Shown here: one piece after another, positions 46,828 to 52,440 of the stretch | How positions within the stretch are numbered: position 1 is the first letter of the stretch | Layout: the number at the start of each line of letters is the position of its first letter | Assembly: GCA_035546815.1 (NCBI GenBank) | Contig: DASZWB010000001.1 | Location: 20,667-84,666, forward strand | Length of the DNA stretch: 64,000 bases | Direction of reading: 5' to 3' | Source of the DNA: Candidatus Saccharimonadales bacterium | GTDB lineage: Bacteria; Patescibacteriota; Saccharimonadia; Saccharimonadales; UBA4665 | Made by a program: the position numbers and the translations under genes | The notes under the pieces: model-generated | Database searches by the model: none | The model's input: the letters and a program-made list of their open reading frames with translations, nothing else | What the model was told of the DNA's origin: nothing

Positions 46828-46885
46828 GGCCGAGCGGCCGGCTGCACTCCGCCTGACCCTCATTTTAGGCATGGCCAGGCGCTCG

Positions 46886-47407
46886 CTAAATAGCCAGCAT
46901 TTTGCGCAGGGTTTTGATGTTACGGTTAGTGTTGAAATTTCTGTATTTGGCCTTGGCGAGCGTTTTGCCGAAGGAGCTGCGCAGCGTCAGGCCCTGATCG
47001 ACGCGCCAGTAGATGACGCCGCGGCCGGTTTGGACTTTTTCGCCCCTGCCGAGTTCAAAATCGTCAGCCAAAATGGCCTTTTCTAGCCCGTTTTCGATAA
47101 AGATCACATAGTCATGCTGCTTGCTGCTAGCGGTGCCGAACGGATAGCCGTCAACGATTGCCCGGAGCCGCTCAAGCGGCACGACTTGGACGATGGCCGG
47201 ATAAGCAAAGGTTTTGGTCAGCGCGGCTTCGATCAATTTTTTTAAGTCAGCGGCCGCAGCATCGCTCTCAAAGACGACATTGCCGGATTGCAGCAGCGTA
47301 GCCACATTATGCAAACCGGCCTTGTCCAGACAAACGCGCAAATCGGCCATTTTGACGACCCGCCCGCCCACGTTAATACCGCGCAGAAACGCCGCGTAGC
47401 GCGCCAT
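46886..47407 (-). CDS. DUF1697 domain protein
   Basis: MARYAAFLRGINVGGRVVKMADLRVCL is the DUF1697 signature N-terminus. Confidence 0.75.
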   Translation of the reverse strand: MARYAAFLRGINVGGRVVKMADLRVCLDKAGLHNVATLLQSGNVVFESDAAAADLKKLIEAALTKTFAYPAIVQVVPLERLRAIVDGYPFGTASSKQHDYVIFIENGLEKAILADDFELGRGEKVQTGRGVIYWRVDQGLTLRSSFGKTLAKAKYRNFNTNRNIKTLRKMLAI

Positions 47408-47572
47408 TTATTGCTTCGGCGTTTGCCGGCGCACCACCAGCACGTCGTAGACGAAAATGATGGCCGCCAGCACCAGAGCGATGTAAATCAGCGCTCCCAA
47501 AATGTGCAGGAAGACGCCGATCAGCCAAATCAGCACCAGCACGGCCGCGATAGTTAATAAAATATTTCCCAT
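47408..47572 (-). CDS. lmo0937-family small membrane protein
   Basis: MGNILLTIAAVLVLIWLIGVFLHILGALIYIALVLAAIIFVYDVLV. Start set at the ATG lying 6 nt after a TACAAT box. The track start at 47590 is the alternative. Confidence 0.55.
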   Translation of the reverse strand: MGNILLTIAAVLVLIWLIGVFLHILGALIYIALVLAAIIFVYDVLVVRRQTPKQ

Positions 47573-47605
47573 GCCCTCATTGTAACGCATCTAACGATAA
47601 GAATG

Positions 47606-47620
47606 TGACATGTCAGATTG
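47606..47620. repeat. Terminal inverted repeat, unit 1 left (TGACATGTCAGATTG)
   Basis: Perfect reverse complement of 48343-48357 and identical to 48555-48569. The core TGACATGTCA is itself a 10-nt palindrome. Confidence 0.95.
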
Positions 47621-48342
47621 CGGCGCGGAACTGGTGGCGGGGAGAGCGAAAACCGCTCAGGCTAGGCTCTCCCCGCACCAGTGCTTGTGTTCGTCCTGCT
47701 CTCGGACCTATCGGTATCGGAGCCGTGACACCGTTGATAGGACCGCTGCTATGTTGCGTGAACACCTGGTTAGGTCATACCCCGTGACTACGCTTGTCAG
47801 CACGACCGAGGCGCGTGGCCGTTTGCCAGCACGGCTCCAGATGAACACTCGCCTAACGAACTGCGGCTTTAGCCCGATGGACCACGGGTCATGAAGCGAC
47901 ACAGTTCGGCGTGGGTAGAAGTAGTACAAGCGGGCGGCGCGAGAAGACCTACGAAGGCGGCGGAGAGGAGGACCTCAAAACCACCAGCTTCGGAGCCGGA
48001 AGGTTGCCTTGTAACGCTCCGTCTCGTCTTCTCGCGCTCAGCCCGGGCTAGAGGCGCCGCATCCTCGCGAATTGGCAGGGAGATTCGCGAATCAATTGCA
48101 CACGCCCCCTCACTGGCGCAGCGGACACTGATTCGGGTAATGGCCGCGCGCCAGCAAGTGTGGCAATTGGTGACTACTTGGCTGTCGTCAGCTCCTCCGG
48201 CGGAACTTTATAACGATAACTTCGCTTCCGCTCCTTACGGACGCCCCAGTGCTTGGGACGGCACGGATGACGCAACTTAAATAGACTTCTCATGGCTCTT
48301 CTCCCTTGTGCCCGTTTTGCGCTATTACAAAAAACACAACTA

Positions 48343-48357
48343 CAATCTGACATGTCA
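48343..48357. repeat. Terminal inverted repeat, unit 1 right (CAATCTGACATGTCA)
   Basis: Perfect reverse complement of 47606-47620 and identical to 49278-49292. Confidence 0.95.
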
Positions 48358-48429
48358 AGGTGCTAACCTCGGAAAAACTGCGAACTACCTTGAGCTCAAG
48401 CGGCCTCTCAATCCAAAATTAGTACTATA

Positions 48430-48458
48430 ATTAAACGCTAGCTTAAAGAAAATGTCAA
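48430..48458 (-). promoter_or_regulatory. Promoter P1: TTGACA-N17-TTTAAT reading toward unit 1
   Basis: -35 is the complement of 48453-48458 and -10 the complement of 48430-48435. Boxes and spacer length match the second copy exactly, while the spacer sequence differs. Confidence 0.55.
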
Positions 48459-48554
48459 TGGTGCGGCACTTGCGGCACCTTAGACGAAGTATTATTGAAT
48501 TATTCGAACTGCCAGCGGCATCTCTCAAAGCCAATAATTAATGATTATGGAAAA

Positions 48555-48569
48555 TGACATGTCAGATTG
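48555..48569. repeat. Terminal inverted repeat, unit 2 left (TGACATGTCAGATTG)
   Basis: Perfect reverse complement of 49278-49292. Confidence 0.95.
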
Positions 48570-49128
48570 ATGGGGGCGAAGCGGCTAAAGGTTTGAGAAA
48601 GCGGCGCGGGGAGAGTGAGTCTTCGCGGGGCGAAGTAACCAGATTCCGGACAAATCCAGTCGTGCTACTCACTCTCCCGTTGCCGGCTTTGGTTTACATC
48701 CGCTTTACACGAACCCTGTCTCGGTGGGAGGCGCCAAACGGCACTTGAGACGATAGGCCCGCCGCCTGGGCGATGAAATGCCCGTACGTTACGCGGATAC
48801 CTCCACTCCCGAACACCATCGGGGGCGAAGCCTTTGAAAACTCAAAAAGCAAAATAGAGACCCGAGCGACGAGAAAGCCCCCCAAACTTAGGGACAGGCT
48901 GTGTGTGTATCACTCGCACTGCCCAGTGCGTGCCTGCAACCTTCCGGATTCTTTTGGAACCTTTCCGGTATCGCTTTCTCGCGCTCGGTATCTCTCCCCC
49001 TGTAATGACGCGCACGGCGGACTCTGATGAAGTACCAACTACCTGCATCGGAGCACAACTTGGGCCGTGGGCGCCTTACTGCCTGTTACGACGGTACTTA
49101 TCCCTCCCAGGAGTAACCGTCCAGGCAA

Positions 49129-49160
49129 GTTTTGCGGTTTTGCGGTTTTGCGATTTTGCC
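49129..49160. repeat. Tandem octamer repeat (GTTTTGCG x3 plus ATTTTGCC) inside unit 2
   Basis: Read directly from the sequence: gttttgcg gttttgcg gttttgcg attttgcc. Unit 1 has a single GTTTTGCG at the equivalent end (48313-48320). Confidence 0.9.
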
Positions 49161-49277
49161 TTAGCAAAAAGGACTCAAACTTTTGACATTATCAGAATAC
49201 GAGCAAAGCGGCGGCGCGAGTGGCTGCTCGGCGGCTGCGCTGGTCGTATCCCAATAATATCGCTTGCGCGGTTCAAA

Positions 49278-49292
49278 CAATCTGACATGTCA
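49278..49292. repeat. Terminal inverted repeat, unit 2 right (CAATCTGACATGTCA)
   Basis: Perfect reverse complement of 48555-48569. Confidence 0.95.
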
Positions 49293-49378
49293 AAGTGCTA
49301 ACCTCGGGGAATACACGGCGAATCCAGGCTTTTCGTGCGCGGACTCCAGCCGGTCTCTCGACCCAAAATTGCTATATT

Positions 49379-49407
49379 ATTAAACGCCTCTCGAGAGAAA
49401 ATGTCAA
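49379..49407 (-). promoter_or_regulatory. Promoter P2: TTGACA-N17-TTTAAT reading toward unit 2
   Basis: -35 is the complement of 49402-49407 and -10 the complement of 49379-49384, with a 17-nt spacer. The flanking ACCA and GCG bases are also conserved with P1. Confidence 0.55.
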
Positions 49408-49441
49408 TGGTTCGGCCGCTCGGATGGTAAAATAAAACTCT

Positions 49442-50524
49442 ATGGCACTCTCTATCGGCATCGTCGGGCTGCCCAATGTTGGCAAGTCTACCCTGTTTAA
49501 CGCCCTGACCGGCAGCAATATTTTGGCGGCTAATTATCCGTTTGCGACCATTGAGCCGAATACCGGCATTGTGCCGGTGCCGGACCCGCGGCTGGCTAGG
49601 CTCGGCGAGTTATATAAGACTAATAAAATCGTGCCGGCCACGGTGACGTTTGTGGACATTGCCGGGCTGGTGGCCGGCGCCAGCGAGGGCGAAGGGCTCG
49701 GCAATCAGTTTTTGAGCCATATCCGCAGCACCGACGCCATCGTGCAGGTGGTGCGGGCTTTTGACGATGCCAATGTGACGCATGTTGACGCGGCGCGCGA
49801 ACCATTGCGCGACATCGAGGTCATCAATACCGAGCTAGTGCTTGCCGATTTGCAAACCGTCGCCAAGCGCCTGCCGAAGCTCGAAAAAGAGGCCCGCGCC
49901 GACCCGAAATTGAAGCCGCTGATGGCGACTTACCAGCAGGTGAACACTTTGCTTAATCAGGGCCAGCCGCTCTGGAATCACCCTGAAGTCAACCGCGATC
50001 ACCTTGCCGACTTGCACCTTTTGACCATGAAGCCGGTTATTTACTTGTTCAATCTGGATGAGGCCGGCTTGGGCGATGGTTCAACCCGCGGCGCGCTGCA
50101 GCAACTGGTGGCGCCGGCCCGGGCGCTGTTCGTCTGCGCCAAGTTGGAGAGCGAATTGAAGGATCTGGACGCTGCGGACGCCGCCGAGCTGCTGGCAAGC
50201 TACGGCCAAACCGAATCGGGTCTGGTGCAGCTGATCCATGCCGCTTATGGCACGCTCGGCCTGCAAAGTTTTCTGACGGCCGGCGAAAAAGAGGTCCGCG
50301 CCTGGACGATTCCGGCGGGCGCCACGGCGCCGCAAGCGGCCGGCGTCATTCACGGCGACTTTGAGCGCGGCTTTATTGCCGCCGACGTAGTGAGCTACGA
50401 CGACCTGCTGGCCGCCGGTTCCCTGGCCGCCGCCCGCGCCGCCGGCAAAGTCCGCACCGAAGGCAAAGGCTACATTATGCAGCCCGACGACGTGGTGGAA
50501 TTCAAATTTAATGTTTCTAAATAA
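49442..50524 (+). CDS. ychF: Ribosome-binding ATPase YchF
   Basis: MALSIGIVGLPNVGKSTLFNALT...ANYPFATIEPNTG... plus a C-terminal TGS-like domain. 360 aa. Confidence 0.9.
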   Translation: MALSIGIVGLPNVGKSTLFNALTGSNILAANYPFATIEPNTGIVPVPDPRLARLGELYKTNKIVPATVTFVDIAGLVAGASEGEGLGNQFLSHIRSTDAIVQVVRAFDDANVTHVDAAREPLRDIEVINTELVLADLQTVAKRLPKLEKEARADPKLKPLMATYQQVNTLLNQGQPLWNHPEVNRDHLADLHLLTMKPVIYLFNLDEAGLGDGSTRGALQQLVAPARALFVCAKLESELKDLDAADAAELLASYGQTESGLVQLIHAAYGTLGLQSFLTAGEKEVRAWTIPAGATAPQAAGVIHGDFERGFIAADVVSYDDLLAAGSLAAARAAGKVRTEGKGYIMQPDDVVEFKFNVSK

Positions 50525-51597: not shown

Positions 51598-51751
51598 GGG
51601 GCACCTCCGCCTTTAGCTCTTTCATGATAGTACTTTTTGGCTGAGTAAGCGGTGAAAATCCTCACAAATTGCGTGCGATTTTAATCACACGGATTTGTAA
51701 TGTTTCGAGCTATTTACCCCTGTAATTTCGCGCTCGCACAACATTTAATAT

Positions 51752-51780
51752 TTGACTTCTTATTTTACCCCTATCATAAT
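51752..51780 (+). promoter_or_regulatory. Promoter TTGACT-N17-CATAAT, 6 nt before the Crp/Fnr-family ATG (leaderless configuration)
   Basis: TTGACT at 51752-51757, a 17-nt spacer, CATAAT at 51775-51780, ATG at 51787. Confidence 0.5.
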
Positions 51781-51786
51781 ACATAT

Positions 51787-52440
51787 ATGTTGGCCACGCT
51801 GAAACAGACAGCGGAACTGGTGGACCTCTTCAGGACGCGCGGCCTCAAGCAAACGTTTCGAAAAGGTGATTTTGTAATTCGACCCGGCGATACCCCGCCG
51901 GGCATTTTTTATATCTACCAGGGCTTGGTGAAAGCCTACGACATCACCAAGTACAACGAAGAAAATTTGCTGATTATCCGCAAAGAGGACGAGATTTTTC
52001 CGCTCATTTGGGCCATTACCGGCCAGGAGCGGCACGTGATTTATCAGGCGCTGGCGCCGACCGTCACCTGGCAGTTGAGCCGGCAGGATTTTCTGGACTT
52101 TATCGGCAAAGAGCCCGAGGCACTGGCGCCGATCGTCGACATGACGATTGAAATGTACCGGCTGCACAGCGAGCGCATCCTCAACTTGGAGTACCGCACG
52201 GTGCGCGAACGCATCATTTCGTTTTTGCTGACCATGGGCCAGCGCTTTGGCAAACAGACGGCCGACGGGCTGCTGATTGACGTGCCGCTGCGGCACCAGG
52301 ATATCGCCAGCTCAGTGAACGCCACCCGCGAAACCACCAGCCGCGAGCTGTCGGCGCTGGAACGCAAGGGTTTACTCAAAAATAAGCAGTCGCTGATCGT
52401 GCTCTACGACGTCAAAGCTCTGCGCAAACACCTCGGCTGA
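51787..52440 (+). CDS. Crp/Fnr-family transcriptional regulator
   Basis: cNMP-binding-like beta-roll (FRKGDFVIRPGDTPPGIFYIYQGLVKAY) and a C-terminal HTH (RHQDIASSVNATRETTSRELSALERKG). Start set at MLATLKQ. Confidence 0.75.
   Translation: MLATLKQTAELVDLFRTRGLKQTFRKGDFVIRPGDTPPGIFYIYQGLVKAYDITKYNEENLLIIRKEDEIFPLIWAITGQERHVIYQALAPTVTWQLSRQDFLDFIGKEPEALAPIVDMTIEMYRLHSERILNLEYRTVRERIISFLLTMGQRFGKQTADGLLIDVPLRHQDIASSVNATRETTSRELSALERKGLLKNKQSLIVLYDVKALRKHLG

Follow-up and report, generated by a model that had tools for sequence, protein, structure and literature searches.

What is specified by a 15-nt sequence that stands unchanged at both ends of two neighbouring DNA segments whose interiors have little in common? 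The question is raised by a 64,000-nt stretch of the Candidatus Saccharimonadales bacterium assembly GCA_035546815.1 (contig DASZWB010000001.1, positions 20,667 to 84,666), hereafter the window, in which the sequence TGACATGTCAGATTG occurs exactly at 47606-47620 and 48555-48569 of the plus strand, and its exact reverse complement, seen as minus-strand matches, at 48343-48357 and 49278-49292. Two tandem units bounded by inverted repeats result, unit 1 (47606-48357, 752 nt) and unit 2 (48555-49292, 738 nt). Our analysis indicates that each unit is a separate minus-strand gene with its own predicted promoter and structured leader. We lean, with modest confidence, towards the view that the two repeats of a unit form an RNA closing helix (P1) read in a sequence-specific way by a factor that is probably a dimer, with maturation of the RNase III type as the leading candidate.

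A scan of the window at up to two mismatches returned, beyond these four copies, only shifted self-overlaps arising from the 10-bp core, TGACATGTCA, which is identical to its reverse complement; chance would give 0.04 matches, and six or more were obtained in 0 of 100 shuffles. An initial annotation of this DNA had described four perfect 15-nt copies bracketing each unit as inverted repeats, a palindromic core, the absence of the 15-mer from the rest of the 64 kb and the divergence of the unit interiors, and all of these descriptions hold. The units occupy a 1.85-kb stretch without credible open reading frames (ORFs), flanked by a DUF5670 gene on the minus strand at one side and by ychF on the plus strand at the other. 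Their interiors have in common only a handful of colinear words of at least 7 nt, and in alignment the long conserved blocks are limited to the arms and to approximately 100 nt at the high-coordinate side, outside the inverted repeats (48358-48458 for unit 1 and 49293-49407 for unit 2). These stretches correspond to a predicted promoter and a structured leader on the minus strand, from which it follows that each unit is best regarded as a separate minus-strand gene. A protein gene or pseudogene within the window units was considered and rejected, as the longest ORFs are dissimilar (including two 130-aa plus-strand ORFs), no reading frame is conserved between paralogues or orthologues, and the indels between orthologues are not multiples of three.

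Read along the minus strand, the frame consists of promoter, leader, the hexanucleotide GCACYU, 5′ arm, body, G-rich hairpin, C-rich linker and 3′ arm. The putative promoter, assigned by its likeness to the consensus, is of the sigma-70 type (TTGACA-N17-TTTAAT), with conserved boxes and a spacer that has diverged between units and across loci; an automated promoter scan missed both copies, as it demands an A at position 2 of the -10 hexamer. The leader measures about 65-80 nt and covaries, and the GCAC.T flank that follows it is invariant or nearly so in all frames, with no complementary partner past the 3′ arm. The linker before the 3′ arm is 40-60 nt long, rich in C and poor in G, and resembles a Rho loading site.

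Frames of this kind form a family. Scanning 185,579 species genomes with a 22-nt pattern led to two metagenome-assembled genomes (L001 and L002), one of them annotated as Saccharibacteria; a 21-nt pattern scan of metagenomes yielded 11 contigs (L008-L018), and walking from ychF and DUF1697 homologues added L019, L026, L027 and L029. Altogether, 22 frames in 18 loci, all of Saccharimonadales type, have the same leader type and the same arms. Eleven of them are non-coding (class N, the two window units included) and eleven are coding (class C). YchF and DUF1697 of the window are themselves 100% identical to proteins from a metagenome-assembled Candidatus Saccharimonadales genome. A covariance model built from the class-N leader and the 5′ arm, searched against 329 kb including the rest of the window, recovered every frame (53-91 bits in class N and 24-48 bits in class C; in the window, 77.9 bits for unit 2 at 49278-49371 and 87 bits for unit 1 at 48343-48421) and gave no other match in those 329 kb. 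Every recognisable unit in the relatives keeps its inverted repeat, and related loci lacking the repeat have no unit at all; units retained with degenerate or absent repeats, which the initial annotation had named as a sign against a functional role, do not occur among them, an outcome that speaks for function.

Across this family P1 is nearly invariant. Positions 4-13 of the 15-mer are unchanged in 15 of 15 complete units, the interiors of which are about 45% identical. The arms of these units can pair over 15 bp in class N and 16 bp in class C, with 94% of cells paired (14-40% in slid controls), and pairing stops at both boundaries; an outward extension of P1 by pairing of leader and 3′ trailer was not seen. 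Position 1 is U-A, changing to U.G in three class-C units and to U.U in the class-N units of L002 and L029; position 15 is G-C, or A-U in L027_b; position 16 is C-G in all of class C, and U-A, U.G or unpaired in class N. Pairing at the RNA level is supported by the fact that variants at the helix ends are RNA-compatible (U.G, A-U). Since P1 is frozen while neighbouring helices covary and interiors drift to such low identity, we infer that it is read as sequence, and this contrast between invariance and free covariation nearby is the strongest argument for sequence-specific reading. The proposal in the initial annotation that recognition of the sequence, rather than mere base pairing, keeps the copies identical is thus borne out, with three other helices covarying freely around an invariant block. 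One further copy of the core TGACATGTCA lies in L027 (5997-6006) across the ychF start codon (TGAC ATG TCA), with neither arm extension nor partner, and is most likely coincidental.

The helices around P1 show covariation of the RNA type, given here as counts and not as probabilities. An inner hairpin of the leader, SSC-UK-GAGYN...NRYUC-GSS, is common to both classes; among 13 distinct sequences, 95% of cells are paired and 18 are double-changed, as compared to 17-46% paired in slid controls, and 0 of 500 shuffles reach the observed percentage paired, number of double-changed cells or covariation score. One of its pairs is G.U in 8 of the 13 sequences and would be C.A on the opposite strand. 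For the whole leader, the RNAalifold consensus of 10 class-N sequences contains 24 pairs, seven with compensatory changes, and describes one long hairpin starting near the predicted 5′ end. MAFFT and RNAalifold applied to mixed class-N and class-C leaders misaligned them and returned no structure, and class-N-only alignments and hand-registered arms were used. The G-rich 3′ hairpin, GGGGNGNG.../...CNCNCCCC, is likewise found in non-coding and coding frames, with 96% of cells paired, compensatory changes in 8 of 11 pairs and 0 of 500 shuffles as good. The 5′ hairpin of eight class-N bodies has 88% of its cells paired; compensatory changes affect 8 of its pairs, and its G.U cells, 17 in number, would read as A.C in the opposite strand. 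The central helix occurs in the versions GAGAAGAC/GUCUUCUC, GAGAAAGC/GCUUUCUC, GGGAAGGUG/CACCUUCCC and GGGGAGGCG/CGCCUCCCC.

Folding points to the same strand. Fold z-scores range from -7.0 to -8.6 for unit 2 and from -5.2 to -7.1 for unit 1; over 10 class-N units, z averages about -9.7 for the RNA strand and about -6.5 for its opposite, the RNA strand having the lower value in 8 of the 10. Moreover, P1 closes the minimum free energy (MFE) structure in 10 of 10 class-N units folded. In the window, the parts of the two frames and the genes downstream of them, all on the minus strand, are as follows.

49402-49407, minus: -35 box TTGACA of the predicted unit 2 promoter, by sequence, with a 17-nt spacer
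49379-49384, minus: -10 box TTTAAT of the same predicted promoter, by sequence and conservation across loci
49299-49371, minus: unit 2 leader, one long irregular hairpin AAUUUUGGG...CCCYRRRGUU with inner stem GGC-UG-GAGUC/GAUUC-GCC (RNAalifold, covariance model)
49293-49298, minus: unit 2 unpaired flank GCACUU, directly 5′ of the helix (conservation across frames)
49278-49292, minus: unit 2 P1 5′ strand, RNA UGACAUGUCAGAUUG, pairing with 48555-48569 in the MFE fold
48570-49277, minus: unit 2 body, a 708-nt ORF-free structured RNA (fold z, covariation, L014 orthologue)
49244-49261 and 49185-49202, minus: arms of the unit 2 5′ hairpin (covariation)
48971-48988 and 48862-48878, minus: unit 2 central helix
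48667-48678 and 48609-48620, minus: unit 2 G-rich 3′ hairpin (covariation)
48570-48608, minus: unit 2 C-rich linker
48555-48569, minus: unit 2 P1 3′ strand, RNA CAAUCUGACAUGUCA, then UUUUCC (exact repeat)
48453-48458, minus: -35 box TTGACA of the predicted unit 1 promoter, by sequence
48430-48435, minus: -10 box TTTAAT of the same predicted promoter, 17-nt spacer, by sequence
48364-48421, minus: unit 1 leader hairpin, inner stem CGC-UU-GAGCU/AGUUC-GCA (covariation, covariance model)
48358-48363, minus: unit 1 unpaired flank GCACCU (conservation)
48343-48357, minus: unit 1 P1 5′ strand (exact repeat, MFE fold)
47621-48342, minus: unit 1 body, a 722-nt ORF-free structured RNA (fold z, orthologue L019_u1)
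48026-48037 and 47937-47948, minus: unit 1 central helix
47666-47676 and 47637-47647, minus: unit 1 G-rich 3′ hairpin
47606-47620, minus: unit 1 P1 3′ strand, with no U-run after it (exact repeat)
47408-47590, minus: DUF5670 gene, 60 aa (Pfam), starting 16 nt past the unit 1 3′ arm
46886-47407, minus: DUF1697 gene, 173 aa (Pfam), downstream of DUF5670 in the same orientation

Some features of the units stand apart from the frame itself. Unit 2 contains an 8-nt tandem repeat at 49129-49159 (GTTTTGCG, 3.9 copies; CGCAAAAC on the RNA strand); as this stretch is missing from L014, the 80%-identical orthologue of unit 2, it gives the impression of having expanded recently, within a peripheral loop. 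Taken as a block, GCACYUUGACAUGUCAGAUUG at the 5′ side (48343-48363 and 49278-49298, minus) is similar to the rrn boxA consensus over the first 11 nt and, if two small gaps are allowed, to the 5′ end of the E. coli 16S rRNA, UUUGAUCAUGGCUCAGAUUG; covariance models of rRNA gave no similarity for the block, and the resemblance may be a coincidence. Downstream of unit 1, GAGGG lies just 5′ of the DUF5670 ATG, and no U-run separates the 3′ arm from that start codon. As the U-run is lacking, read-through of unit 1 into DUF5670 and DUF1697 is plausible, and the two genes may be co-transcribed with unit 1. A large RNA and the small DUF5670 membrane protein may accordingly share one transcript, an arrangement that would recall OLE RNA and oapA.

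According to the reading that we favour, the 5′ and 3′ arms would pair in the transcript and tie together the ends of each of the tandem minus-strand RNAs, with the core UGACAUGUCA pairing with an identical copy of itself into a duplex of exact two-fold symmetry, a geometry to be expected of a homodimeric enzyme that acts on double-stranded RNA. The P1 core would be recognised, in a sequence-specific way, by a factor that is probably dimeric, the leading candidate being a double-strand nuclease of the RNase III type; the stalk would be cut as in rRNA precursors, leader and trailer would be removed, and the mature cargo would keep paired termini that protect it against 3′ exonucleases and, at the 5′ end, against attack of the RNase J type. 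The cutting of rRNA processing stalks by RNase III is established, and RNase III-type excision is favoured here because the frame layout matches that of the rRNA operons matured by this enzyme. A gene for RNase J is present in the related locus L020, and engineered paired termini have been reported to stabilise bacterial RNAs (PMC1635301). Of the three roles offered in the initial annotation, an rRNA-type processing stem fits best, given the promoter and leader upstream, the location of the arms exactly at the body ends, and the U.G and compensatory changes at the helix ends; no rRNA is involved. That annotation was right on the repeats and their recognition, and it had missed the minus strand, the promoter and leader, the structured RNA interiors and the coding cargo found elsewhere.

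Several points weigh against RNase III-type maturation through P1. The promoter, the transcription start, the pairing in vivo, the recognition by a factor and the cleavage are all predictions drawn from sequence. The invariant core shows no covariation, and pairing at positions 4-13 is deduced solely from the inverted symmetry of the arms; a C.A mismatch occupies position 14 in both L027 units, and two outer P1 pairs are broken in the second frame of L015 (L015b). The covariation counts come from arm alignments that were set by hand with a view to the pairing, and from sequences that share ancestry. With 15-16 bp, P1 is shorter than the approximately two helical turns (about 20 bp) of classical E. 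coli RNase III substrates, which weakens the case for RNase III, though shorter substrates exist. Moreover, sequence-specific reading of an A-form helix is unusual, and the sequence might instead be read single-stranded or as DNA. No RNase III signature motif was found in the window plus 31 loci (329 kb), but these represent such small parts of the genomes that the negative says nothing on whether the enzyme is encoded.

The cargo between the arms varies, with arm-to-arm distances from 538 to 3166 nt. Class N comprises two units each in the window, L019 and L027, and single units in L014, L026, L001, L002 and L029; these units measure 538-752 nt and have no conserved ORF, and alignments of their orthologues contain many indels that are not multiples of three. 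Downstream of every one of them, in all eight loci, lies a co-oriented DUF1697 gene, and in some loci DUF5670 is placed between the two. Class C comprises L008-L013, L015 (two frames), L016, L017 and L018. Here the frame opens with a 150-200-nt 5′ untranslated region (UTR), followed by one or two genes whose products have N-terminal signal or anchor sequences; several cargo proteins contain Big_9, cadherin-like or PKD domains, the second gene is sortase-like or conserved between loci, and every cargo ORF reads away from the frame promoter. In L011 and L015 the frame adjoins ychF in divergent orientation. The possibility that the long-spaced units (1.8-3.2 kb) contain rRNA genes was rejected, as protein genes are found there instead. 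In the class-C 3′ UTRs of L011, L017 and L015b, a degenerate extra core (GACAAAUGUC, GACAAAAUGUCA and GUACAUGUCU, respectively) precedes the 3′ arm by about 30-45 nt and is followed by a small CCC-N4-GGG hairpin directly before GCAAUCUGACAUGUCG; class N has neither.

The neighbourhood of ychF is a variable slot holding zero, one or two frames. In the close relatives L022, L024 and L025, MMPL lies directly beside ychF, with no unit and no DUF1697, and these cargo-free loci show no sequence match to the window units; some other related loci have different, unrelated genes in the slot. In more distant relatives DUF1697 adjoins ychF and there is no frame, which weakens the idea of an obligate partnership between the non-coding RNA (ncRNA) and DUF1697, a family whose only relative in the Protein Data Bank is the uncharacterised 2HIY and for which our literature search found nothing. 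The MMPL-ychF interval (window 46828-49441, compared with L019, L022, L024-L027 and L029) is a hot spot of insertion and deletion. Tandem pairs seem to have originated repeatedly, as both L027 units have the unit-2-type 5′ hairpin, which unit 1 of the window and of L019 lacks. L014 (10119-10850) has a single unit that is unit-2-like over its full length, with 80% identity, followed by the sequence found downstream of window unit 1 (..GCGTTACAATGAGGGCATG, DUF5670 start; compare window 47560-49292), an arrangement expected as the product of a deletion between directly oriented 3′ arms or frames. Elsewhere in L024 and L025 (13075-13452), a gene for a 23S rRNA intervening-sequence protein (PF05635) lies between efp and rpsR, a position at which it is absent from the closer relatives of the window.

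Among the alternatives, the one that survives best, and that we regard as possible if doubtful, is that P1 acts as a passive clamp or long-range terminator and is not cleaved, its invariance stemming from an overlapping single-stranded 5′ signal such as the boxA-like GCACYUUGACA. End pairing would then block both 5′-end-dependent decay of the RNase J/E type and decay by 3′ exonucleases, the 3′ arm being kept for its complementarity only; paired termini do stabilise RNAs without processing (PMC1635301), and RNase J is encoded in L020. In agreement with a terminator, UUUU(U)C directly follows the 3′ arm in 7 of the 11 class-N units, but it is absent from the coding frames and the DUF5670-proximal units, and an intrinsic terminator would not typically consist of a stem with 6 G+C in 15 positions and a 5′ arm placed 700-3100 nt upstream. 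The boxA of rRNA leaders sits between the leader hairpin and the stalk strand, and the GCACYU block has the same position; in addition, conservation at the 5′ side runs on into this unpaired, partnerless block. GCACYTTGACA agrees with the consensus GYTCTTTAANA at 8-9 of 11 positions (PMC5725501), a consensus that is gamma-proteobacterial and may not hold for the Saccharimonadales. The match nevertheless departs from it at positions 3 and 8 and is variable at position 5, GUCAGAUUG beyond the boxA-like stretch is equally invariant, and the palindromic core is left unexplained by a clamp.

A less probable extension of the favoured reading, which we consider unlikely, is a portable RNA cassette, confined to one clade of episymbiotic CPR bacteria, in which a dedicated factor reads P1 together with GCACYU and matures interchangeable cargo, both ornate ncRNAs of 540-750 nt, which would be a new class, and adhesin/sortase mRNAs, with an outcome that possibly goes beyond trimming; the ends might, for example, be joined into circles, or the RNA might be targeted to the cell envelope or to the host.

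More improbable still is that the inverted repeats are recombination sites of an invertible or exchangeable cassette, flipped or swapped by a site-specific recombinase while the promoter stays in place, and serving phase or antigenic variation of surface proteins, with class N as decayed or alternative cassettes. Inverted repeats do flank a segment, the cargo at one locus ranges from ncRNA through Big_9/cadherin/PKD proteins with a sortase-like partner and other secreted proteins to nothing, copy number is 0, 1 or 2, and the L014 unit with its unit 1 downstream flank is what one would expect had directly oriented arms or frames recombined with loss of the DNA between them. Phase variation typically affects surface adhesins. 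Against this, 0 of the 22 units are inverted relative to promoter and leader, the leader and G-hairpin ends are never swapped, and no recombinase was found among the flanking genes (MMPL, DUF1697, DUF5670, ychF, bPH_3, Crp-family and others) in the window and 12 syntenic loci. The frame has covarying RNA hairpins both within and beyond the arms, and their G.U pairs make sense for a single strand; a spacerless 10-bp palindrome falls short of the core site of a tyrosine recombinase, and dyad symmetry is absent from the wider site. Ordinary homologous recombination between the repeated frames would suffice for gain and loss of units, and the invertible or excisable segment proposed in the initial annotation is not supported.

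The same applies to a binding site for a dimeric DNA-binding protein, another role proposed there, which would make TGACATGTCA an operator acting by looping or roadblock, for instance for the Crp-family protein encoded two genes past ychF, and which we judge very improbable. The 10-bp palindrome is perfect and invariant across genomes, and a cNMP-binding/HTH_Crp_2 gene is conserved nearby (window 51700-52440), but the gene is equally present in loci without a unit (L022, L024, L025 and L028). Dimers of the Crp/Fnr type read half-sites spaced by roughly one helical turn, whereas the half-sites here abut, with centres 5 bp apart. Neither site is at the promoter, one lying at about +75 and the other at the distal end of the transcript; the AGATTG extension, which is asymmetric, is conserved and inverted between the ends, for which an operator has no need, and the U.G-type variants keep the RNA pairing and not the DNA half-site.

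Finally, miniature inverted-repeat transposable elements (MITEs), that is, non-autonomous elements with 15-bp terminal inverted repeats, can be set aside almost entirely: despite the repeat-like ends and the presence/absence polymorphism between related genomes, there is one locus per genome region examined, always in the ychF/DUF1697 neighbourhood, none of the dispersed copies with target-site duplications that the initial annotation had associated with a MITE, no further copy anywhere in the window (64 kb) or in related loci (329 kb), no direct repeat flanking the arms, a conserved promoter and leader outside the supposed terminal repeat, interiors that have diverged, in contrast to the usual uniformity of MITE copies, no match in plasmids or phages, and a motif limited to 2 of 185,579 species representatives and 11 metagenome contigs, its matches in viral contigs being due to chance.

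Searches against known families and sequences were in line with a lineage-specific system. With Rfam 15, which covers OLE, ROOL, GOLLD, HEARO, rRNA, RNase P, group I and II introns and self-cleaving ribozymes, the whole window gave tRNAs only at the gathering threshold, region 47400-49500 gave spurious miRNA and snoRNA matches of 14-20 bits at E<=10, and L001, L002 and L008-L018 gave no family match beyond tRNAs and noise. Plasmid and phage collections gave no blastn match to the units, and the literature search returned nothing specific on ncRNAs of Saccharibacteria or the Candidate Phyla Radiation (CPR), or on end-pairing frames. A phage origin, considered on account of 16-mer matches in viral contigs, was rejected, as these lack the leader and the second arm and are chance matches. 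One of the viral contigs, L005 (IMGVR_UViG_3300009873_001326, about 1480-1610, minus), has two TGACATGACAGAATCAC copies just upstream of TGACATGTCAGATTG; this array is iteron-like and unrelated to the Saccharimonadales frame, the match being a matter of chance.

Compared with known systems, the frame is closest in layout to the rRNA operon stalk, with a strong promoter, a leader hairpin, a single-stranded box and a strand that pairs past the 3′ end of a long RNA; its tandem genes each have a stalk of their own, and the two-fold symmetry suits a homodimeric nuclease. However, its cargo is not rRNA and matches no Rfam rRNA at any threshold, and its stalk is only 15-16 bp long, invariant in sequence and also placed around mRNAs. 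The engineered paired-termini (PT) RNAs of E. coli have flanking inverted repeats as well, their double-stranded termini raising stability and abundance (PMC1635301), but they are synthetic and tolerate any complementary sequence, whereas the frame is natural, lineage-specific and conserved in sequence. Class-N cargo is large, highly structured and lineage-restricted like OLE, ROOL, GOLLD and raiA, and, like OLE with oapA, lies beside the genes for a very small membrane protein and a functionally uncharacterised protein; it differs in giving no covariance-model match and in being far less conserved (about 45% identity outside the ends), in having tandem divergent paralogues and in a frame also used on mRNAs. 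Invertons and shufflons similarly have short inverted repeats around a segment affecting surface-protein expression at a variable locus, but the frame has no inverted copies and no nearby recombinase, its promoter lies outside the segment, and RNA covariation spans it. Functional long-range pairing of transcript ends is also known from hok (fbi/tac) and from retrons (a1/a2), but those RNAs are 150-400 nt long, belong to toxin or reverse-transcriptase systems absent here, and have end-pairings that covary.

The principle of an end-pairing stalk is thus already known, while the frame and the class-N RNAs are undescribed in Rfam or the searchable literature. What is new is an invariant, symmetric helix of 15-16 bp that, together with a dedicated leader, frames both ncRNAs and surface-protein mRNAs at one variable CPR locus. 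The frame looks like a cassette for RNA maturation or stabilisation. Saccharimonadales are ultrasmall episymbionts with genomes of about 1 Mb, and the spending of 1.9 kb of such a genome on two highly structured ncRNAs, with promoters predicted to be strong, implies an important function, while some relatives run host-facing surface proteins from the same expression frame. If P1 is a maturation or stabilisation signal, the 21-nt motif would be a handle for finding such transcripts in any metagenome, genomes being searchable for the frame with the strings GCACNTTGACATGTCAGATTG and CAATCTGACATGTC. The class-N RNAs would then be candidates for a new class of large, structured CPR RNAs, and the frame a natural, compact paired-termini module that could be reused for RNA stabilisation. 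The finding would also open to testing the concrete question of how reduced genomes come to use, on other transcripts, processing signals that usually belong to rRNA.

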